Positions 3,829 to 49,030 of a stretch of 61,553 nt of DNA are shown one piece after another. The notes beneath the pieces are model-generated. The model was not told the origin of the DNA, made no database searches, and was given only the letters and a program-made list of their open reading frames with translations. A program made the position numbers and the translations under genes. Each line of letters begins with the position of its first letter. Position 1 is the first letter of the stretch. Origin of the DNA: Candidatus Parcubacteria bacterium (lineage in GTDB: Bacteria > Patescibacteriota > Minisyncoccia > Phycocordibacterales > Phycocordibacteraceae); contig JAKFXG010000002.1 in assembly GCA_021731495.1 (NCBI GenBank), positions 1-61,553 on the forward strand. The letters are read 5' to 3'.

Positions 3829-3899
3829 TGCGGGATAGGAGAATCGAACTCCTGCTCTCAGTTTGGAAAACTGACGTTCTACCATTAAACTAATCCCGC
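3829..3899 (-). tRNA. tRNA-Gly (anticodon UCC), no encoded CCA
   Basis: Hand-folded cloverleaf: GCGGGAT acceptor, anticodon arm TCAGT-TTTCCAA-ACTGA, T arm AGGAG-TTCGATT-CTCCT. Confidence 0.9.
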
Positions 3900-3974
3900 T
3901 TCAGGAACGAGAATAGCAGGAAATTGCGGTCCGCGCGATACGCACTGTCTTTCAAAACGATTTCGCGTTAGCGT

Positions 3975-5129
3975 ATGGGAATGAAACGCCTTGCCCCGTA
4001 TCTTGGTGTCATTGTCGCCATCGTATTTACGGTGTCTGCCGTCGCTGTTGCAAACTCGGTAACCATTCGGCTGACTCCTGTTCCAAATACGCCAGTTGCA
4101 TCCTCTACGCTTTCGGTGCGGCCCAATCTCGATGCGCCGCCCATACCGCTACCGAGTTCTGAATTGGCCGCGAACACAGAAAGCGCTTCTCCGGCGCAAG
4201 CGACATCTACCGCGAAGAAGGTGTCGCCCGCGCCCGTGTCGGCTGTTGCTCCTACCCCAGCCCCTATCCCGACCCAGCCTCAACCTTCCGCGGGGAACGC
4301 CGCTGCACTCGATGCTACTGCACTTGCACTACGCGAAGCTCTCGTAAATATCATTTGTTATGCTCCTGCAGGGGGTGTTCTGCGCTCACTTTCTGGAAGC
4401 GGCGTCATCATTGATACGAAGGGCATTATCCTCACCAACGCGCATATTGCTCAAAATTTCCTCCTGGCCGACCGCGGTGTCTCATGCTCTATTCGCGCGG
4501 GTAGTCCGGCTGTGAAAAGGTATGAGGCCGCGCTCATCTTCATTTCATCCGCATGGCTAAACGCGAACGCGAGCGTGCTCACACAATCGGCGCCGAGCGG
4601 CACGGGCGAATATGACTTTGCGCTTCTTGCTATCACAAAGAGCGCGACGGTGACACCGCTCCCTGCCCAATTCCCATTTTTGCCGCTCGCAGAGACACCC
4701 TCTCCTCCCGGCACGCCAGTTGTCATCGGTTCATACGGGGCACAATTCCTCGAGTCGAGCCAGATACAGTCTTCTCTCTTCCCCACGGTTGTTTTCGGTT
4801 CGGTGAAAAATGTATTTACATTTGGGAAGAACACTATCGACGTGCTTGCGCTTGGGGGGTCAGCGGCCGCGCAACAGGGATCTTCCGGTGGCGGCATTGC
4901 TGATGCGAGGGGCATGCTTGTGGGCACTATCACCACAAGCACAATCGAAGGCGCCACCGACACCCGCTCACTCGATGCCATTACCGCCTCCTACATTCGG
5001 GCACAATATGCGAACGAAACCGGAAGCGCTCTCGACGCGCTTCTCGCTAAACCGACGGCTGCTGCCACAGCAGACTTCGCGCCTCAAATGCCTACGCTCG
5101 AGTCGGTTATAACCGCTCATTTACCCTAA
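3975..5129 (+). CDS. membrane-anchored trypsin-like (S1/HtrA-like) serine peptidase
   Basis: N-terminal TM, Pro/Ala-rich linker, GSGVIIDTKGIILTNAHI and GSSGGGI motifs. Confidence 0.75.
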   Translation: MGMKRLAPYLGVIVAIVFTVSAVAVANSVTIRLTPVPNTPVASSTLSVRPNLDAPPIPLPSSELAANTESASPAQATSTAKKVSPAPVSAVAPTPAPIPTQPQPSAGNAAALDATALALREALVNIICYAPAGGVLRSLSGSGVIIDTKGIILTNAHIAQNFLLADRGVSCSIRAGSPAVKRYEAALIFISSAWLNANASVLTQSAPSGTGEYDFALLAITKSATVTPLPAQFPFLPLAETPSPPGTPVVIGSYGAQFLESSQIQSSLFPTVVFGSVKNVFTFGKNTIDVLALGGSAAAQQGSSGGGIADARGMLVGTITTSTIEGATDTRSLDAITASYIRAQYANETGSALDALLAKPTAAATADFAPQMPTLESVITAHLP

Positions 5130-5270
5130 TCCGCAAAGTCGGACTGGCTAGACCCATTTAGGCCGATATGGCTGGCACATTCTGTCAGAAACAAAGTCGG
5201 GGTGCGGAGAATCGGACTCCGTCATCTTAAATTTCTTATGGAAATTTCCACAGAAGTCTCCCAGACTTCT

Positions 5271-5416
5271 GGTCACAACATTTTCTAAACCAACTATTTA
5301 GTCACACTGTCGGGGTGCGGAGAATCGGACTCCGTCATCTTGCTCCCAAAGCAAGCGTACTACCGGTATACGACACCCCGACACTGCGACCAAAAATCTA
5401 AGAAAATGTTGTGACC
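5271..5416. mobile_element. 146-bp unit bounded by perfect 16-bp inverted repeats that carries the intact tRNA-Pro (MITE-like, tentative)
   Basis: GGTCACAACATTTTCT at 5271-5286 is the exact reverse complement of 5401-5416. Confidence 0.4.
5310..5380 (-). tRNA. tRNA-Pro (anticodon UGG), no encoded CCA, T-loop TCCGATT
   Basis: Acceptor CGGGGTG/CACCCCG, anticodon arm CTTGC-TTTGGGA-GCAAG, T arm CGGAG-TCCGATT-CTCCG. Confidence 0.85.
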
Positions 5417-5431
5417 CCAAAGCAAGCGTAC

Positions 5432-5499
5432 TACTGCCAAGCGAGCCGAGCAACAAGTGAATTCCAATTCATTTGTTCGAGGCGAGCGAAGGGAGAAAG
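5432..5499. repeat. about 68-nt hairpin repeat, copy A (TACTGCCAAGCGAG...GGGAGAAAG), inside the D-loop of the broken tRNA-Pro
   Basis: Its first 14 nt are identical to 28501-28514. The central hairpin differs in sequence but still pairs, and the 3' block GAGCG..GG.AGAAAG is shared. Confidence 0.5.
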
Positions 5500-5578
5500 C
5501 TCTGCTTACCGGTATACGACACCCCGACTTTACTTCTGAACCCGCGCATCCCAGCCCATCTGGTCCACCATATCATCA

Positions 5579-5998
5579 TCAGACGATTTGTGGCAGATAG
5601 GAGACACGAGCCGTACCGTCTCGACGACGCATCCACACAAGGATTCCATCCACTTGCCAATCCCCTCCCCAGTTTTTCTCAAGAACATACCACTCCCCTG
5701 TTCGGGCAACCTTTCGCACCTTCGCCTCGTGGAGATTCAATGATGGGTCATAATCGTCATTTGCACTTTTTTCATCACGAAACTCGTCCACAAGTATCGT
5801 CTTAACTTCAACAAAATGAAGGGTGTTCTCCTTCTCCACAATGAGATCGAGTTCACCCGTCTTTCGTGCGATATTGCGATCGCGAACACTGAATCCGTGT
5901 CGCTTAAGGTACTCGGCCGCAATGCTTTCCCCAAGTGCGCCAACCTCTTTTCGGCTCTTAGAAGAAATGTCCACGGCCCGGTCAGTACAAGATGGCAT
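5579..5998 (-). CDS. YraN-family (UPF0102) endonuclease-like protein
   Basis: GALGESIAAEYLKRHGF...ELDLIVEKENTLHFVEVKT is typical of YraN. The start is uncertain (5998 or 6040). Confidence 0.7.
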   Translation of the reverse strand: MPSCTDRAVDISSKSRKEVGALGESIAAEYLKRHGFSVRDRNIARKTGELDLIVEKENTLHFVEVKTILVDEFRDEKSANDDYDPSLNLHEAKVRKVARTGEWYVLEKNWGGDWQVDGILVWMRRRDGTARVSYLPQIV

Positions 5999-6235
5999 TA
6001 CTCCCCGTGTCTGCCTTGTTAGTAAGTTCCACGAACCCATTATTGTTTACGAGTGGAATGCGAGCAAGTCGTATTCTGGAGTTGAAGACACTATGCCATC
6101 TTGTCCTACCGGGCACGGCCTTTAGAAATGCGGCTCATTTGTTAAGTATTTCATAGACTTATCAAAAAGTCTGATGTCCTTTATCCCCAGTACTAACAGG
6201 TTTATCCACTTCCAACACAAAACGAAAAGACACAC

Positions 6236-6261
6236 AAAAACGGCCAAATTTAGCCGTTTTT
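6236..6261. terminator. bidirectional hairpin terminator
   Basis: AAAAACGGC-CAAATTTA-GCCGTTTTT. Confidence 0.5.
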
Positions 6262-6314
6262 GCTCAGTTTTGCATGCTATACTGCCAATCGGTGAAATTT
6301 TAAAGGAAGATCCC

Positions 6315-6500
6315 ATGCTCTGTTCGTTTGAATGTGACTGTCCTTTCGACCCGGAAACACTTGAGCGCTTGAGCGCAAAAATGAAATGCTCCAAGGACAC
6401 GACACAAGTGCTTGAGGTCATCAAAGAAGCAAATAACGCCTCTTTTGGCGGTGGCTGTTGTATACAGGTCTTGAAACTCATCCCACGAGGACTAGTCTAA
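6315..6500 (+). CDS. small Cys-rich hypothetical protein (61 aa)
   Basis: AAGGAAG SD 6 nt before the ATG; the stop codon lies in the loop of the 6486-6510 hairpin; AT-rich; no family recognised. Confidence 0.3.
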   Translation: MLCSFECDCPFDPETLERLSAKMKCSKDTTQVLEVIKEANNASFGGGCCIQVLKLIPRGLV

Positions 6501-6510
6501 CTAGTCCTCG
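6486..6510. terminator. perfect 11-bp hairpin (CGAGGACTAGT-CTA-ACTAGTCCTCG)
   Basis: Read directly; followed by TTTCGTT on the + strand; lies downstream of tRNA-Gly on the - strand. Confidence 0.45.
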
Positions 6511-6528
6511 TTTCGTTCTATAAGTCGG

Positions 6529-6599
6529 TGCGGGCAGGGATAATCGAAATCCCGTCTCATCCTTGGCAAGGACGTGTTCTACCACTGAACCATGCCCGC
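6529..6599 (-). tRNA. tRNA-Gly (anticodon GCC), no encoded CCA
   Basis: GCGGGCA acceptor, anticodon loop TTGCCAA, T arm GGGAT-TTCGATT-ATCCC. Confidence 0.9.
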
Positions 6600-6832
6600 T
6601 TCAGGCGACATGATACCATGCCACCCTTTCATTTTTCCAGTGCCCCAACCAGGATCGCGATTACGCTTATCGAAACTTACAGTTTCAGTACACTTCATTC
6701 AGCAGAATGACTCTTGGAGTACGCGGATTTTCTCTTCGCGCAAACGCTCGATAAAATGCTCGCAAAGTCTTCGATTCCTGGCCGCACGTCCCCCAGACGT
6801 GCTTCGGGGCACATCCTCGCTATGTTCGTATG

Positions 6833-6904
6833 TGCCCCGACCAGGAATCGAACCCAGAATTCGACGTCCGAAGCGTCGCGTGATATCCGTTTCACCATCG
6901 GGGC
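6833..6904 (-). tRNA. tRNA-Arg (anticodon UCG), no encoded CCA
   Basis: GCCCCGA/TCGGGGC acceptor, D arm GTGA-AACGGATA-TCAC, anticodon arm CGACG-CTTCGGA-CGTCG. Confidence 0.85.
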
Positions 6905-25514: not shown

Positions 25515-26504
25515 ATGGACGATACTATTACAAAAGAACAGGTGTTGAATGCCTACAATAATGCGCCAGATTTCGTTCGCGCCGCATTCAACGACGAAGT
25601 AACGACCCAGGTAGTTGTGGGGTTAAAGGCGAAATTCCAACTTCACATCGATATGGCCGGCATCCTTGCTAAGGAAGTGGGATACTTGCTTCTCGGTGTT
25701 ATCGATCCAGATACGTTTGCAAAACGCCTCAAGACTAGTGGTTTTTCTGAACAGATGGTTACAGAAATTATGGCCGAGCTCAATCAAAAAGTATTTGTTC
25801 CCCTGCGAACAAAAATGAGACGTGAGGGAGTAGAGACGGGCCAGACACCCGCTCCTGTCGCAAAGGTTCCACAACAGAGACCGATGGCGCCGCCGCCAAC
25901 TCCCACGGTAGGGGGAGTCTCCTCCTATTCTCCGCCTTTGCAGTCCCCGCGATATTCATACCCAGAGAATCCAATGCCTACCCAACCCCAGTATCAATCT
26001 ATTTCTAAGATCGCACCCTTGCCGCCGAAAAATGTGCTCCCACGCCCACCTTCACTTCCAGCTGTAGGAGGGTCACGCCCGGTTTCGGGACAAGTTCCAA
26101 AGCCAATGGACGCGAGCAGAATGCTCGAAGACCATGAGGAGCCGCATATCGAATTCAATAAAACACCTCCTGCGCCTGGTGTTCCTGTACGGGAGAAAAG
26201 AGTGGAAACGCCGCTCGGACAAGCATTGCGAACGGTGATGCCCTCAGTGCCTCCCACAAATCTTCCGGGCGTCATGCCAAAAAGTATCGCTCCCGGCGCT
26301 CGATACTCCTCATATACGGTCACCCCAAAGGCCAGCCCGGTTACTCCACCCATTCCCCCGAAACCAATTCCTCCCGTTACCCCTCCTGCTCCCCTAAACG
26401 CTTCGCCACGCGAGGCACCGGGCGAACATTATGCAAAGCAGAATGTTGTAGCCGCCAAACCCTATTCGGCCGACCCCTACCGCGAACCAATTGATGAAAA
26501 ATAG
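25515..26504 (+). CDS. hypothetical protein, about 100-aa N-domain then a long Pro-rich tail
   Basis: ORF tightly linked to the upstream gene. Carries repeat copy d near its C-terminus. Confidence 0.65.
   Translation: MDDTITKEQVLNAYNNAPDFVRAAFNDEVTTQVVVGLKAKFQLHIDMAGILAKEVGYLLLGVIDPDTFAKRLKTSGFSEQMVTEIMAELNQKVFVPLRTKMRREGVETGQTPAPVAKVPQQRPMAPPPTPTVGGVSSYSPPLQSPRYSYPENPMPTQPQYQSISKIAPLPPKNVLPRPPSLPAVGGSRPVSGQVPKPMDASRMLEDHEEPHIEFNKTPPAPGVPVREKRVETPLGQALRTVMPSVPPTNLPGVMPKSIAPGARYSSYTVTPKASPVTPPIPPKPIPPVTPPAPLNASPREAPGEHYAKQNVVAAKPYSADPYREPIDEK
26392..26451 (-). repeat. double-hairpin palindromic element, copy d (60 nt, in frame, diverged)
   Basis: Its reverse complement reads CTACAAC-[ATT/AAT hairpin]-GTTCGCCCGG-[GCCTCG/CGAAGC]-GTTTAGGG. 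Confidence 0.55.
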
Positions 26505-27210: not shown

Positions 27211-27624
27211 ATGGCTACCATCAATCAACTCTCAAAGAGAGGACGAAAGAACAAGTCACGCAAGACGACCGTGCCTGCTTTGGCGCGTGGTTTTAATGCA
27301 CTCAAGAATCGCCCGACGTTCTACCCATCGCCCTTCAAGCGCGGTGTGTGTACCAAGGTGACCACGAAGACCCCGAGAAAGCCAAACTCCGCTATCCGTA
27401 AGATCGCCCGTGTTCGCCTCACCAATGGCATGGAAGTCACTGCCTACATTCCGGGTGAAGGACACAACCTCCAGGAACACTCAGTCGTGATGCTTCGCGG
27501 CGGTCGTGTAAAGGACATCGGCGTTCAGTACACCATCGTGCGCGGCAAGCTCGACACCGCCGGCCTCGAGAAGCGTCGCTCGTCTCGTTCCCGCTATGGC
27601 GCGAAGCGCCCTTCGGCTAAATAA
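27211..27624 (+). CDS. rpsL: 30S ribosomal protein S12
   Basis: MATINQL...[39 protein letters not shown]. Confidence 0.97.
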
Positions 27625-27626
27625 CT

Positions 27627-28091
27627 ATGCGTCGTCCCCTTAAAAAGAAGCGAACTTGGCGTCCGGACCTCAAATACGGTTCGGAGACTCTCACGCGTTT
27701 CATCAATGCAGTCATGTGGGACGGAAAGAAGGACACGGCTCGTGCAGTCGTCTACGATGCTCTCGCTATCATCAAAGAAGGTGGAGCAGACCCGCTTGAG
27801 ACATTTGAATCGGCTCTCCGTAACGTGTCTCCTTTGATGGAAGTCCGCTCCCGCCGCGTCGGTGGTGCAAACTACCAGGTTCCCCGTGAAGTTCCGCAGA
27901 CACGCCGTCTCGCACTTTCATTCCGCTGGCTCATCAATGCGGCTCGCGCAAAGAAGGGCAAGCCGATGGCGGACAAGCTCGCTGCCGAATTCCTTCTTGC
28001 CGCAAAGAACGAAGGCGACGCTATCAAAAAGAAGGACGAGATGCACCGCATGGCGGATGCTAACAAGGCTTTTGCTCACTTCGCGTGGTAG
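27627..28091 (+). CDS. rpsG: 30S ribosomal protein S7
   Basis: S7 family sequence (..VEVRSRRVGGANYQVP..); follows rpsL. Confidence 0.97.
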   Translation: MRRPLKKKRTWRPDLKYGSETLTRFINAVMWDGKKDTARAVVYDALAIIKEGGADPLETFESALRNVSPLMEVRSRRVGGANYQVPREVPQTRRLALSFRWLINAARAKKGKPMADKLAAEFLLAAKNEGDAIKKKDEMHRMADANKAFAHFAW

Positions 28092-28111: not shown

Positions 28112-28145
28112 AAAAACCTGCGCCCTTTTGGCGCAGGTTTTGTGT
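28112..28145 (+). terminator. rho-independent terminator after rpsG
   Basis: CCTGCGCC-CTTTT-GGCGCAGG followed by TTTTGTGTT. Confidence 0.7.
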
Positions 28146-28195
28146 TATGGTCATATGTGGTTGGTCCTTAGTTTTTCAAGGGTAAGAATGTGGGG

Positions 28196-28458
28196 CTGAG
28201 TCCTCAGAACCCAATCTTGCGAAGACAATGGACGTGCGCATGGAGTGCAGTAACGCGTGGGAACTTACTCGGTACTTTCGATGGCCCACGACGGACCAGC
28301 TAGTTGGCGAGGCAATGGCTCACCAAGGCGATGACCTGTAGGAGGTGTTCTCCGCAAAGTCTCCCTGTACATGTTTGGCTTGCAGCCGCAGTCTACTCAT
28401 GACTCTTCACCAACCGCTTTCAAAAGCCCCTCCGTTTTATGGTCGGGCTTTCTTTTTT
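28196..28458 (+). ncRNA. candidate non-coding RNA with two 16S rRNA 5'-domain-like blocks (mimic or relic)
   Basis: 28243-28264 GAGTGCAGTAACGCGTGGGAAC and 28280-28335 GATGGCCCACGACGGACCAGCTAGTTGGCGAGGCAATGGCTCACCAAGGCGATGAC. Possible TTGGTC-17-AAGAAT promoter at 28161-28189 and a terminator at 28423-28458. Confidence 0.4.
28423..28458 (+). terminator. hairpin plus T-run
   Basis: AAAGCCC...GGGCTTT followed by CTTTTTT. Confidence 0.45.
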
Positions 28459-28500
28459 CCGCAGTTTCCGCTATTCTCTACCTAACGCCACGGCGCCTTT

Positions 28501-28567
28501 TACTGCCAAGCGAGTGAGTGAAAAAGAAATTCCCATTTCGTTTTTCCGAACGAGCGCTGGTAGAAAG
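28501..28567. repeat. about 67-nt hairpin repeat, copy C (TACTGCCAAGCGAG...GGTAGAAAG), in the fusA 5' region
   Basis: Shares 14 identical 5' nt and a similar 3' block with 5432-5499. The central hairpin is of different sequence. Confidence 0.5.
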
Positions 28568-28599
28568 ATGCCGGAGGCAGCTTATTTTTTATCTAATTT

Positions 28600-30747
28600 A
28601 TGAATCGAGATTACCCTCTAGAAAAGGTTAGAAACTTTGGAATTATCGCCAACATCGACGCGGGGAAGACGACTACGTCTGAGCGCGTGCTTTTCTATAC
28701 GGGTAGCCAACACAAGATCGGCGAAGTGCACGAGGGCGAAACGACGACCGACTGGATGGAGCAGGAGCGTGAGCGCGGCATCACTATCACTGCGGCGGCA
28801 ATCACCTGTTTCTGGACGAAGACTGGAGAGCCAGATAAGAAAGACACGGCAAAGAAGTTCCGTTTCAACGTTATCGACACGCCGGGACACATCGACTTCA
28901 CTGCGGAGGTGAAGCGCTCCATGCGCGTGCTCGACGGGGCTGTTGTCGTCTTCGACGGTGTTGCAGGCGTCGAGCCGCAGTCCGAGACCAACTGGCGCTA
29001 TGCCGACGAGGCAAAGGTGCCGCGCATCTGTTTCATCAATAAGCTCGATCGTACGGGAGCATCTTTTGAACACTCCTACGCAAGCATCCTCGACCGACTC
29101 TCGCCGAAAGCTATTCGCATGCAGATTCCTATCGGCGAAGAGTCTGCTCATGAGGGATCCATCGATCTTCTCACCATGAAGGCGTACTCGTTCTCCGGGA
29201 ACATGGGTGAAGAGGTGACGACAGGCGAAATCCCGGAGGCCCTCCTTGAGGATGCAAAAAAATATCGTGCAGAACTCATCGAACGCATTGTGGAACAAGA
29301 CGATGCCGCGATGAGTGCGTATCTCGACGGTAAGGAGCCAAGCGTCGAAGAGCTAAAGGCAATTTTGCGCAAGGCGGTTATTGGGAACGAAATATTCCCA
29401 GTCTATTGCGGAAGCGCGCTCAAGAATAAAGGCGTACAGCTCGTGCTCGATGCCGTTGTTGACTACCTTCCTTCACCACTTGATCTTCCGCCTGCTACCG
29501 GAAGGAACCCGAAGACGAGTGAACCTATCGAGCGTCATGCATCGGACGATGAACCGTTCTGCGCGCTCGCTTTCAAACTCCAAACCGACCCGTTCGTCGG
29601 CGCACTGACCTTCTTCCGTGTTTATTCAGGCACACTCACTGCCGGCTCATACGTTTACAACTCAACCACCGGCACCAAGGAGCGCGTCGGCCGTATCGTG
29701 CGCCTGCAGGCTGACAAGCGCGAAGAAGTCGCGAAGGTATTTACAGGCGAAATCGCTGCTGCTGTGGGTCTCAAGGATACGAAAACGTCCCACACACTTT
29801 GTGATGAGGCGAACCCAATCACGCTAGAAGAAATTAAATTCCCTGAGCCGGTGGTATCGCTTCGCATCGAGCCGAAGACCAAGGCTGACCAAGAGAAGAT
29901 GGGTGTCGCACTCCGCAAACTTTCGGACGAGGACCCGACCTTCCGCATCAAGACCGACGAAGAGACCGGCGAGACCATCATTTCCGGCATGGGCGAACTG
30001 CATCTCGAAATCCTCGTTGACCGCATGAAGCGCGAATTCGGCGTCGTCGCAGATGTGGGCAAGCCGCAAGTGGCGTACCGCGAAACGATTCTCAGCTCCG
30101 CAGAGGCAGAAGGAAAGTACATCAAGCAGACCGGTGGTCGCGGCCAGTACGGTCATGTGAAGATCAAGATGAAGAAGATGGAACCAGTCGATCCGGAAAA
30201 GAAAGTTTCAAAAAATATTACACGCGAAGACCATTTCGAGTTCATCAACAACATCAAAGGAGGCGTCGTTCCGCAGGAATACATCCCGGCGGTGGAGAAG
30301 GGTATGCGCGAAGCTATGGGACGAGGACATCTCGCCGGGTTCCCAATGGTTGATATCTCTATCGACCTCTACGACGGCTCGTACCACGACGTGGACTCTT
30401 CGGAAATCGCCTTTAAGATCGCAGCGTCGATGGCGTTTAAGGAAGCGGCTCAAAAAGCGAAGCCGGTTATCCTTGAGCCGATCATGCGCGTCGAGGTCAT
30501 CGTGCCGGATCAGTTCATGGGCGACATCACCGGCAATCTTTCCGGCAAGCGCGCACAGATAGAAGGTATGGAGGAGCGCGGTATGAATAAAGTCGTGCAC
30601 GCCAAGGTGCCACTTTCTGAAATGTTCGGTTATACCACCACGCTCCGCTCCATGACCGAAGGCCGCGGAAGCATGACAATGGAATTCGACCACTACGATA
30701 CGGTCCCGAAGAATGTGGCAGACGATATCATCGCGAGCCGAAAGTAA
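28600..30747 (+). CDS. fusA: elongation factor G
   Basis: [28 protein letters not shown], full-length EF-G. Confidence 0.97.
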
Positions 30748-30996: not shown

Positions 30997-32196
30997 ATGG
31001 CAGAATTTAATCGAAGCAAGCCGCACATGAACGTGGGCACCATCGGTCACGTGGACCATGGAAAGACGACTCTCACCGCAGGTATCCTGCATGTTCTCTC
31101 GATGCTCACCGGCGAGGGCTACAGCGCCCGCGTTGAAGGCGTCGATAAGATCGACAGTGCACCTGAGGAAAAGGCGCGCGGTATTACTATTGCGCTCCAC
31201 CACTCGGAGTACGAGTCACCAAACCGTCACTACGCGCACATTGATGCGCCAGGACACGCTGACTACATCAAGAACATGATCACGGGCGCCGCCCAAATGG
31301 ACGGAGCCGTACTTGTGGTTGCCGCAACTGATGGTGTGATGCCTCAGACACGTGAGCACATCCTCCTTGCAAAGCAGGTGGGTCTCAAGAAGCTCATCGT
31401 TTTCCTTAACAAGGTAGACATGGTTGCCGAGGCTGACCTCATCGACCTCGTCGAAGAGGAAATCCGCGAGCTTCTGACCAAGCAGGGCTACGATGGTGCC
31501 GCTACGCCGATTATCCGCGGTTCGGGCCTTAAGGCTCTTGAATCAAAGGATGTCAGCGACGAGTGGGCACAGAAGGTTAAGAGCCTTGTTGACACGATGG
31601 ACACATACTTCGACCAGCCTGAGCGCGAAGTATCGAAGCCGTTCCTCATGCCTATCGAAGACATCTTCTCGATCGAAGGTCGTGGCACCGTGGTCACTGG
31701 CCGTATCGAGCGCGGTGTTGTGAAGGTAGGTGAAGAAGTTGAGATCGTCGGTATTAAGGCGACCGTCAAGACGACCGTCACCGGTATCGAAATGTTCAAC
31801 AAACAGCTCCAGGAAGGTATGGCGGGCGACAACGCCGGCATTTTGCTCCGCGGTACGAAGAAAGAAGACGTGCATCGCGGCCAGGTCCTCGCAAAGAGCG
31901 GCTCGGTCACTCCGCACACCGACTTCGAAGCCGAGGTCTACATTCTCGGCAAGGATGAAGGCGGTCGCCACACGCCATTCTTCTCGGGTTACAAGCCGCA
32001 GTTCTACATCCGCACAACGGACGTCACCGGTGAAGTAACGCTCGCAGAAGGAAAGGAAATGGTCATGCCAGGAGACACGGTCACTTTCAAGGTGAAGCTC
32101 GTTGCTCCGGTTGCGCTCGAAGCACAACAGCGCTTCGCCATTCGCGAAGGAGGTAAGACGGTCGGTGCCGGTGTCGTGACGAAGATCACTGCGTAA
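30997..32196 (+). CDS. tuf: elongation factor Tu
   Basis: [31 protein letters not shown]. Confidence 0.98.
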
Positions 32197-39919: not shown

Positions 39920-40195
39920 ATGGAACAGAAAACTATTCGTCCCCAATCATTCGTCGGCGTCGTCATAAAGACGGCAATGAAAGACACGGCAACGGTCAAA
40001 GTTGATCGGTACGTGAAGAATGCGAAGTACAAGAAGTACTTCGTGCGTTCAAAGAAGTATCTTGCGCATGATCCGGGCAATACGGCTCAGGTGGGTGACA
40101 AGGTGACTATCGTCGCGACCCGACCGATCTCGAAATTGAAGCATTTCGCGATAGATCCTACGAAGACGGTTTCGGCAGAGAGCGAGAAAAACTAA
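39920..40195 (+). CDS. rpsQ: 30S ribosomal protein S17
   Basis: GVVIKTAMKDTATVKVDRYVKNAKYKKY...HD. Confidence 0.95.
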   Translation: MEQKTIRPQSFVGVVIKTAMKDTATVKVDRYVKNAKYKKYFVRSKKYLAHDPGNTAQVGDKVTIVATRPISKLKHFAIDPTKTVSAESEKN

Positions 40196-47617: not shown

Positions 47618-49030
47618 ATGTCATTGCGATTAAGTTTTTATGGCGGAGCAGGGAAGGTGACCGGATCAAATTTTCTTATTGAAGGGGCAAATGGAAAAGT
47701 CCTTGTCGACTGCGGCATCGAACAAGGCGCTGACTTTTGTGAAGAATGCGTGTATGGGCCGTTCCCGTACGACGTGAAGGCGATCGACGCGCTTGTCGTC
47801 ACGCATGCGCATCTCGATCACGTCGGCCGTATTCCAAAGCTCGTGCGGGACGGTTTTCGCGGAAAGATTTACATGACACCGGCGACGCGCGACCTCGCCG
47901 AACTCATCATGCGCGACTCGGTCGGCATCCTGAGCGAAGAGGCCTCTCGTCGAGATATTGCGCCACTCTACGGGGAGAAAGATGTTGATGCAACTTCCTC
48001 ACTCATCGAAACGCTTGAGTATCATACCGAAAAAGAAATTCCTGCCTGCCGGCAGGCAGGGCCCACGGGACTCTCAGTGTATCTCCGCAACACCGGCCAC
48101 ATCCTCGGCTCGGCGAGTGTGCGCATCAAGGATGAGGAGGGCGTTGCCGTTGCGCTCACGGGCGACATCGGCAACTCTCCTTCGCCACTACTGCCTGACT
48201 GGGAACCAGTGACCGACGCGGATGCACTTGTTATGGAGAGCGTGTATGGCGACCGAAATCACCCGAGCCAGCAGGCTCGCACCGAGATCTTGGCCGAGGT
48301 ATTGAAGCGCGCAATAGCAAAAGGCGGCGCTATTCTCATTCCCGCCTTCTCGCTTGAGCGCACACAACTGATGCTCTATGAACTCTCAAACTTTTTTTCC
48401 GCAGGGACGCTCCCAAAGATCCCCGTGTTTCTGGACTCGCCGCTTGCCATCAAGGTGACCACCGTCTACGAGAAGTGGGGTCCAACGTACTTTAAGCCCG
48501 AAACCGAGGATGAGATGAAGCGAGAGGAAAGTATTTTTGAATTTCCGTTTTTGAAACAGACCCCTTCGCGCGAGGAGTCGATGTCGATAGAGAAGGTGCC
48601 GGGCCCGAAGATCATCATCGCCGGTGCAGGCATGAGTCACGGCGGCCGTATCGGTCACTGGGAGACGCGCCACCTGCCCGATCCCTCATCCACGCTCATT
48701 ATCGTCGGGTACCAGGCTCCCGGGACGCCCGGGCGGCGTATGATGGAGGGAGCATCGAGCGTGCGGCTCGGCGGCAATGAGATAAAAATTAAGGCCAAGG
48801 TCGAGAATCTCACGGGATGGTCCGCACATGCCGACCGCGATGAATTGCTCAAATTTGCGCACGCATCACTGCCGCGCCCAAAAGCCATTTTCACTGCCAT
48901 CGGTGAGCCTTCAGCTGAACGTTTCCTTGCTCAGCGCATCCACGACTACCTCGGCGCGCGCGCCATCGTTCCCGAGTCAGGGCAGACCTGGGAGATTACC
49001 AAGGATTCAGTCAAACAAGTTCCGGTTTAG
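47618..49030 (+). CDS. MBL-fold beta-CASP ribonuclease (CPSF/RNase J-related)
   Basis: MSLRLSFYGGAGKVTGSNFLIE, HAHLDHVGRIP, beta-CASP region, C-terminal SAHAD. Confidence 0.85.
   Translation: MSLRLSFYGGAGKVTGSNFLIEGANGKVLVDCGIEQGADFCEECVYGPFPYDVKAIDALVVTHAHLDHVGRIPKLVRDGFRGKIYMTPATRDLAELIMRDSVGILSEEASRRDIAPLYGEKDVDATSSLIETLEYHTEKEIPACRQAGPTGLSVYLRNTGHILGSASVRIKDEEGVAVALTGDIGNSPSPLLPDWEPVTDADALVMESVYGDRNHPSQQARTEILAEVLKRAIAKGGAILIPAFSLERTQLMLYELSNFFSAGTLPKIPVFLDSPLAIKVTTVYEKWGPTYFKPETEDEMKREESIFEFPFLKQTPSREESMSIEKVPGPKIIIAGAGMSHGGRIGHWETRHLPDPSSTLIIVGYQAPGTPGRRMMEGASSVRLGGNEIKIKAKVENLTGWSAHADRDELLKFAHASLPRPKAIFTAIGEPSAERFLAQRIHDYLGARAIVPESGQTWEITKDSVKQVPV
48961..49011 (+). repeat. 51-bp direct repeat, copy 1 (3' end of the beta-CASP gene)
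   Basis: Identical to 49770-49820. Confidence 0.9.

Follow-up and report, generated by a model that had tools for sequence, protein, structure and literature searches.

Organization of the rpsG-fusA spacer

The DNA analysed here, referred to as the window, is a stretch of 61,553 nucleotides (nt) from Candidatus Parcubacteria bacterium (NCBI assembly GCA_021731495.1, contig JAKFXG010000002.1, positions 1 to 61,553), a Kaiserbacteria-type genome of the Candidate Phyla Radiation (CPR). Within its str region, the 508-nt spacer between rpsG and fusA holds a unit of about 290 nt, located between the rpsG terminator (T1) and a second terminator (T2) that overlaps the conserved fusA promoter. The core of the unit descends from the 5' domain of 16S rRNA, and a functional RNA, which might mimic the binding site of a ribosomal protein, is a likelier reading of it than a dead scrap of rRNA. 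The Rfam small-subunit (SSU) model SSU_rRNA_bacteria (RF00177) matches 28246-28356 (+ strand) over model positions 106-311, with 39.8 bits (E 4.6e-10) when a 601-nt stretch is scanned and 45.5 bits (E 6.5e-10) when the whole window is scanned. This is the sole rRNA-like match in the window, which contains no rRNA gene. Both scores fall below the gathering score of 50 and the match covers only positions 106-311 of the 1533-position model, so that the element does not qualify as a member of RF00177. A sub-threshold score is to be expected of a fragment, and the element is a derived piece of the SSU family and not a 16S gene.

The features of the unit and its borders are the following, where h and H denote helices of 16S and 23S rRNA, respectively:

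28112-28145, + strand: T1, the rpsG terminator hairpin (AAAACCTGCGCC / GGCGCAGGTTTT) with a T-rich tail (hairpin scan and direct reading)
28159-28165 (extendable to 28157-28165), + strand: 5' strand of the outer helix P1, GGUUGGU, pairing with 28409-28415 in the minimum-free-energy fold
28166-28245, + strand: 5' arm with local hairpins in the fold (e.g., CCUUAG...CAAGG, 28166-28181)
28246-28356, + strand: mini-16S core (RF00177; 112.8 bits with model R1, described below)
28246-28248 / 28354-28356, + strand: closing helix of the core, UGC / GCA, 3 bp
Within the core, between the closing helix and the proximal h7 stem, + strand: AGUAAC junction
28256-28261 / 28285-28290, + strand: proximal h7 stem
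28262-28284, + strand: 23-nt substitute for h8-h10, with a small hairpin
28291-28339, + strand: h11, complete
28341-28353, + strand: shortened h12-like hairpin, GGAG-GUGUU-CUCC
28377-28387, + strand: small hairpin, GGCU-UGC-AGCC, at the place of the 23S H69-like hairpin of the related locus L036; the H69-like loop is absent here
28409-28415 (extendable to 28417), + strand: 3' strand of P1, ACCAACC
28423-28451, T-run to 28458, + strand: T2, hairpin AAAGCCC...GGGCUUU plus T-run (fold)
28449-28477, + strand: fusA promoter-like motif, TTTCTT - 17 nt - TATTCT, outside the RNA unit and fixing its position

Much of this layout had been anticipated. The original prediction described two 16S-like blocks, and these are present (block 1 at 28243-28264, block 2 at 28280-28335), collinear and in sense orientation, with a resemblance to 16S rRNA far above chance in the SSU model search that had been proposed as a check (E ~5e-10). 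Helices 8-10 are indeed replaced between the blocks, by 23 nt (28262-28284) instead of the approximately 15 nt first estimated. Both bounding hairpins exist, T1 in the hairpin scan and T2 in the fold, and, as had been supposed, no open reading frame longer than 48 amino acids (aa) occurs within the unit. T2 is missed by a simple terminator scan because of its long loop, and its T-run overlaps the -35 element of the fusA promoter-like motif. A hairpin equivalent to T1 is found immediately 3' of rpsG in relatives. The TTGGTC-17-AAGAAT promoter placed upstream is not supported: a consensus promoter scan gives 0 sites, and TTGGTC falls in the 5' strand of P1, which is base-paired according to the comparative data, so that a promoter there conflicts with P1 pairing.

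The 5' arm (28166-28245) resembles neither L036 nor E. coli rRNA significantly and was not rRNA-like in any test. The segment 28200-28245 was considered as a degenerate 16S 5' end (h1-h6) and rejected, being alignable by eye without statistical support. An 8-nt direct repeat flanking the unit (TTATGGTC) was also rejected as a target-site duplication, being too short for significance.

The unit lies upstream of fusA, tuf and the rpsJ...rpsQ genes on the same strand, with T2 and the conserved promoter-like motif intervening before fusA. The rpsL and rpsG genes are only 2 nt apart. The genes concerned are:

27211-27624: rpsL
27627-28091: rpsG
28600-30747: fusA
30997-32196: tuf
39920-40195: rpsQ, within the S10-spc cluster downstream of tuf

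Elsewhere in the window, a cluster of four tRNA genes occupies 3829-6904 (- strand), and a 329-aa proline-rich protein without a Pfam match is encoded upstream of rpsL (25515-26504), with a homologue at the equivalent place in relatives.

The S7 protein and the entire rpsG-fusA spacer were found again in three other assemblies, namely a second one at NCBI (GCA_021733385.1) and two independent Logan assemblies from different runs, all with 100% identity of the spacer. Fragments of 16S rRNA are a classic source of metagenome mis-assembly, and a chimera or contamination by 16S reads might be suspected here. Since the spacer is identical in independent assemblies, it is not an assembly chimera; moreover, the 16S-like fragment carries internal deletions that no real 16S read would have. 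An artefact of this kind has next to no probability.

A homologous unit in a related genome

For comparison, the rpsG neighbourhoods of 80 related species (L004-L083) were collected, none of which contains an rRNA gene, and a covariance model, R1, was derived from the window and one of these loci, L036. (L036, L042, L093, L094, L096 and L097 are labels of loci in related genomes, whereas L098 and L101-L179 denote IMG/VR viral contigs.) A search of the 80 loci with R1 yielded matches in the window and L036 only. Present in 2 of 81 Kaiserbacteria-type species, the unit is accessory and does not belong to a conserved control of the str operon. The nearest relative by EF-G (L094, 93% identical) has a 176-nt spacer without the element, and none of the S7 proteins among the matches listed is closer than 93.5%; the S7 of L036 is 81% identical to that of the window. 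A metagenome scan with the element-specific 18-mer TGCAGTAACRCGTGGGAA returned 8 loci, all of them chance matches (R1 scores of at most 13 bits, no SSU match).

In L036 the SSU model matches with identical boundaries (106-311) at 43.3 bits. The closing helix, GUG/CAC in the SSU consensus, is UGC/GCA in both the window and L036, so that 3 of 3 pairs have changed with complementarity kept, and the consensus UAGCC has become UAGG in both. Both units are devoid of the tips of h7-h10 and of h12; the endpoints differ, and each stump is re-closed as a hairpin. The outer helix P1 reads GGCUGGU / ACCAGCC in L036 versus GGUUGGU / ACCAACC in the window, a compensatory change of U-A to C-G. It starts 87 (window) and 96 nt (L036) upstream of the core, with its 3' strand about 50 nt downstream, and each unit ends with a hairpin and T-run that adjoin the fusA promoter. 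These shared derived states, together with P1 and the terminator, imply that the two units are homologous as wholes, over ~260-350 nt. As for the conservation in relatives by which the original prediction proposed to test its reading, a homologous unit is found in just 1 of 80 related species, and it bears compensatory changes there. The L036 unit also contains a near-canonical 23S H69 hairpin (GGCCGUAACGAUAACGGUCCUAA; GGCCGTAACGATAACGGTCCTAA) at L036:7479-7501, flanked by the 16S-like core on one side and the 3' strand of P1 on the other; judged by sequence, the whole would be a 16S/23S mosaic RNA within one folded unit.

Four-fold degenerate sites are saturated between the window genome and L036, with 29% (rpsG) and 38% (fusA) identity. 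In the core, h11 is identical at 40 of 49 positions (82%), the 5' junction block TGCAGTAACRCGTGGGAA at 17 of 18 (94%), and the proximal h7 pairs (6 of 6) and distal h11 pairs (10 of 10) are unchanged, whereas the stretches between paired segments are barely alignable. The core has thus not diverged as neutral sites have (orthology being taken here from the shared derived states and the flanks), and, given saturated neutral sites and a conserved core, a shared neutral relic is unlikely. Nor do deletions and substitutions ignore secondary structure, as would be expected of a relic: the trimmed tips of h7, h12 and H68 are closed by hairpins in every copy. Such a patchwork of conserved paired segments is, in all appearance, the product of selection on a structured RNA, unlike an ancestral shared relic.

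Spacer variability and other rRNA-like units

Among the 80 relatives, the length of the rpsG-fusA spacer varies between 39 and 3140 nt. The spacer is a hypervariable insertion hotspot, with unrelated small genes in many species. These are often on the opposite strand with extended -10 promoters of their own; examples are a PIN-like toxin (L011) and ispG (L036). A TAGCAC/TACCAC sequence upstream of the fusA promoter, considered as a 3' motif shared by the RNAs, is actually the extended -10 (TGCTAnnnT, reverse strand) of such inserted antisense genes.

In most relatives with a spacer above ~100 nt, the layout before fusA is TTGCTTTTT-N15-GCTATTCT / CGTATCTT, then AACGCCNNGGCGCTTTTATTTTT-ATG: a terminator T-run overlapping TTGCTT, about 17 nt, TATTCT or TATCTT, and the leader AACGCCNNGGCGCTTTTATTTTT. 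The 16S-like element is always upstream of this promoter-like motif. Most of the 80 loci also have a small covarying GC hairpin plus U-run (AACGCCNNGGCGCTTTTATTTTT) about 15-20 nt before the fusA start, terminator-like and within the 5' untranslated region (UTR). In the window, the fusA leader hairpin is interrupted at 28500-28578 by an imperfect palindrome of ~80 nt (CCAAGCGAGYGAG ... CGAGCGCTGG), which the window contains once. The palindrome is shared in the same orientation with L024, L031 and L069, and occurs reversed just after rpsG in L005, L008, L012 and L044; palindrome-like sequences after rpsG were judged by eye in L010 and L035 as well. It looks like a small mobile palindromic element.

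A second type of rRNA-like unit occupies the same slot in L042, where a stretch resembling 23S H68-H69 (L042:4700-4829; large-subunit (LSU) model positions 1859-1998, 30.4 bits, E 1.4e-7) is followed by a terminator and the fusA promoter. Two loci with EF-G 92-93% identical to that of L042 (L096 and L097) retain the H68-H69-like unit (~497-580), at ~70% identity versus 53-57% at four-fold sites. Its H69-like stem is compensatory between L042 and L096 (GACAG/CUGUC to GGCUG/CAGCC), with a loop that drifts from the canonical one. In L093, with an EF-G 95.7% identical to that of L042, the unit is replaced by two small genes. Folding energies compared with shuffled sequences give z = -3.6 for L036, -3.6 for L042 and -2.2 for L096. 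A GC-rich hairpin plus TTTT occurs at the place of T2 in L036, L042 and L096, so that the terminator is present in all four species. Extended -10-like motifs lie upstream of the unit in L036 (TGTTATACT), L096 (TGCTATAGT) and the window (TGGTCATAT); the last is poor, abutting the extended P1 strand and separated by only 2 nt from the core strand (28159). Taken together, these loci make up a small family, patchily distributed, of units that are bounded by terminators and composed of rRNA-derived modules; the window copy is its most reduced member.

Phage counterparts

The same subdomain recurs in phages. When IMG/VR was scanned for the h11 variant, a single viral contig emerged (L098), in which an isolated h11 hairpin stands on a closing helix beside a second hairpin. 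A general h11 20-mer matched 79 viral contigs; in none of them (0 of 79) does the similarity to 16S rRNA exceed 400 nt. Most of them (75 of 79) belong to one family of ~48-kb enterobacterial temperate phages (e.g., L103:3968-4059), in which the module consists of GCUGG, h11, a hairpin and CCAGC on a longer stem, in the pL leader and in sense orientation. Phage HK639, a relative of this family, has an annotated putL-like antiterminator RNA in the corresponding leader. One variant, L175, has a compensated closing helix (ACUGG/CCAGU). In a related contig, L101, the carrier stem (GGAAUGUUUUGG / CCAAAGCAUUUC) is the same but bears another insert. The phage h11 module has no match in Rfam.

The trimmed 106-311 architecture of the window is seen in Streptomyces phage Omar (NC_054662.1 ~48600-48730 = L157:10062-10191, - strand) and in contig L132 (13499-13601, - strand), with the closing helix, the AGUAAC junction, a short h7, h11 and an h12 that has its native CCUGAGAGGG loop. 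In Omar, the first genes are preceded by 1.3 kb of untranslated sequence, which contains the copy on the strand of these genes. Isolated h11-like hairpins are also found in cultured phages of Yersinia, Shewanella, Klebsiella/Escherichia (Jedunavirus), Moraxella and Streptomyces. Of the control patterns, two universal 16S 20-mers match 3 and 5 viral contigs, and canonical H69 matches 1. By contig count h11 is over-represented; by independent contexts (~5 in IMG/VR) the excess is modest. The contrast is rather a qualitative one, in that the phage h11 matches are isolated hairpins, not rRNA genes. No relevant description of an h11 or rRNA-fragment RNA from phages or CPR bacteria turned up in literature searches.

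The window, L036, Omar, L132 and members of the phage family were aligned (22 sequences). The closing helix and the h12-like helix show double changes at every pair with 95-96% pairing, and 4 of 6 pairs covary at the base of h11. In distal h11, 10 of 10 pairs keep their pair type, with just two single-sequence departures. None of 500 shuffles reaches the observed values. An invariant h11 on freely covarying support helices suggests that h11 serves as a recognition element.

Comparison with known systems

Autoregulatory ribosomal-protein leaders (the uS7 site of the E. coli str operon and those for uS8, uS15 and uL4) offer a close parallel. Like the element, they place a copy of a protein's rRNA site outside the ribosome, in a str/S10/spc neighbourhood, and expression may thereby be coupled to free ribosomal protein (PMC10931766). 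Likeness to the protein's rRNA site, by which such leaders are recognized, is evident here. The differences are considerable. Known leaders mimic a small motif with little sequence homology, whereas the element comprises ~110 nt of recognizable 16S found by the SSU model. It is not in the UTR or intercistronic region of its presumed partner's gene, rpsQ being 11.5 kb downstream; it is bounded by terminators like a separate unit; and it occurs in very few species. In the known control of the str operon, uS7 binds the rpsL-rpsG spacer (PMC10931766), which is just 2 nt long here, and the E. coli uS7 site lies in the 3' domain, whereas the element mimics the 5' domain.

The put/putL-like RNAs of phages HK022 and HK639 likewise have at least two hairpins on a common stem, just after an early promoter and before terminators, and the phage h11 module occupies the corresponding pL leader in relatives of HK639. 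This is a positional analogy only: there is no sequence similarity, put is not rRNA-derived, and an action of the h11 module on polymerase would rest on the same analogy. With rRNA pseudogene fragments and decayed operons, the element shares rRNA descent, truncation and patchy occurrence, and in L036 a 16S-like piece precedes a 23S-like one. Unlike them, it has a core conserved at neutral saturation, re-closed tips, new complementary closing helices and a recurrence in phages. Finally, mimic RNAs such as YrlA (a tRNA mimic), 6S RNA (an open-promoter mimic) and the CsrB/RsmZ sponges resemble the element as proposed here in being non-coding ligand mimics enclosed by a 5'/3' stem; the element differs in mimicking rRNA and has no Rfam match to these families. 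The likeness of its 5' GGYUGGUCC to Y RNA is superficial and was discarded: 28050-28650 matches neither Y RNA nor YrlA at E up to 10, and no Ro/Rsr gene was seen nearby. The element is not a member of that family.

Possible function and alternative explanations

The best overall explanation, which we advance tentatively since its chances fall somewhat short of even, is a selected 16S-derived RNA module whose h11 would act as a binding-site mimic, with uS17 as the best candidate partner. The module descends from a 16S rRNA gene, of which it keeps the self-contained junction of h7, h11 and h12 (E. coli ~106-311). The outer ends of its helices are trimmed and its closing helix is rebuilt; P1 encloses it within a unit of about 260-300 nt, and an intrinsic terminator stands just before the fusA promoter. 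Selection would have kept the module, the working part being the sequence-invariant distal h11 hairpin displayed on the junction, a free copy of the site of a primary binder of the 5' domain. Of the partners originally named (S17, S20 and S12), S17 is retained, because its binding domain includes h7 and h11 (PMC5591316); S12 and S20 have no specific support. As a primary binder, uS17 attaches independently to a helix junction of the 5' domain (PMC5591316; PMC10931766). The unit might either be a separate small RNA that titrates the bound protein in trans, or the protein might bind the nascent RNA and alter termination at T2. The regulatory decoy inside the str operon that was first envisaged is something we infer only.

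Several observations weigh against this explanation. The unit is confined to 2 of 81 species and absent from relatives with 94% identical S7, and the slot is a hypervariable hotspot, occupied by unrelated small genes in other species. The window copy is the weakest of all: its closing helix has just 3 bp, the base of h11 contains a C-A mismatch, the loop substitution GGCAAUGG is unlike all other copies, the H69-like loop is lost, and the fold z-score is -1.5 for the unit and +0.6 for the core alone. With only the two CPR sequences, the core shows 2 double changes, a value reached by 123 of 500 shuffles and not significant, and the 22-sequence alignment is fitted to the model, with 17 rows from one phage family. 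The H69-like modules of L036 and L042 are unexplained by uS17, which has no known extraribosomal role and is treated just as a primary binder in PMC10931766. Independent recent capture, or gene conversion from a real 16S gene, would also undercut the explanation, and appears unlikely given the shared derived states and the flanks.

The last point belongs to a more general alternative, namely that the unit is a non-functional relic: rRNA-encoding DNA captured (e.g., through illegitimate recombination or the retro-insertion of an rRNA fragment that is abundant and protected by protein), or left from a decayed operon, and rRNA-like owing to recent capture or gene conversion. The patchy distribution in a hypervariable slot would fit this origin, as would the small defects of the window copy and the loss of the unit from L093, despite an EF-G 95.7% identical to that of L042. 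The order of the 16S-like and H69-like pieces in L036 is that of an rRNA operon, and with L042 and L096 having just H68-H69 and the window without the H69 loop, the set looks like differential loss. A relic would not, however, readily account for a core 82-94% identical where neutral sites are saturated and the rest is barely alignable except for paired segments, nor for trimmed helices that are always re-closed and a closing helix changed at 3 of 3 pairs yet complementary in both genomes. P1 covaries, as does the H69-like stem between L042 and L096; specifically this subdomain recurs in phages where other rRNA segments do not; and CPR genomes are streamlined and generally have a single rRNA copy (PMC9297842). 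The original prediction had left relic and mimic as alternatives. The conserved core, the re-closed helices, P1 covariation and phage recurrence favour the mimic, and we consider a relic unlikely. Far less probable still is that the unit encodes a separate piece of a fragmented 16S rRNA that substitutes for a missing region of the main gene in the ribosome. Its boundaries are those of a self-contained structural subdomain, and fragmented rRNAs exist in organelles (PMC10948144), but unrelated sequence replaces helices 8-10 and the h12 tip where these are not simply missing, the unit is restricted to 2 of 81 related species, and in L036 a single folded unit joins the copy to a 23S-like hairpin.

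A serious rival, suggested by analogy with the phage context, is a cis-acting element of the put type, in which the nascent module would act on RNA polymerase, directly or through a recruited factor, and cause read-through of T2 and later terminators into fusA-tuf-S10-spc (processive antitermination). The put RNAs are two-hairpin RNAs of a size similar to the module. The sense-oriented h11 module in the enterobacterial pL leader, where HK639 has its putL-like RNA, is consistent with such an action, as are the Omar module in its long untranslated region before the first genes and the window module directly upstream of T2 and a very long cluster of translation genes. Yet neither sequence nor Rfam similarity to a known antiterminator RNA was found. 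The conserved fusA promoter downstream of T2 would make read-through unnecessary for fusA expression, and T1, upstream of the module, would end most rpsG transcripts before they reach it. In addition, Escherichia phage ZCEC13 has its hairpin between tail genes on the opposite strand. For all its seriousness, this rival seems improbable, about as much so as the relic.

Implications

Binding-site mimicry could also be one instance of something broader. The h7/h11/h12 subdomain, or minimally h11 on a closing stem, may be a portable module copied repeatedly from rRNA genes in CPR bacteria, actinophages and enterobacterial temperate phages, which in untranslated leaders or small-RNA-like units would recruit an assembly protein such as uS17, or act on RNA polymerase, and thereby control transcription or the availability of ribosomal proteins. 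This wider proposal is possible, though we hold it as rather doubtful. To our knowledge, rRNA mimicry by regulatory RNAs is established, and the known mimics are short convergent motifs; what seems novel here is a whole 16S folding unit lifted from its gene, trimmed to the junction and kept.

A practical warning follows: an h11-like hairpin standing alone in a viral or CPR contig should not be taken to indicate 16S contamination. If confirmed, the findings would add an RNA element of phage early leaders, in lineages related to the phages with put-type antitermination, that appears in neither Rfam 15 nor the searchable literature, and would provide uS17 or RNA polymerase with a new RNA partner. 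They would also document that a fragment of an rRNA gene can evolve directly into an RNA with a regulatory or decoy role. Should the portable-module proposal be true, these elements would constitute a new class of rRNA-derived riboregulator common to cells and viruses.

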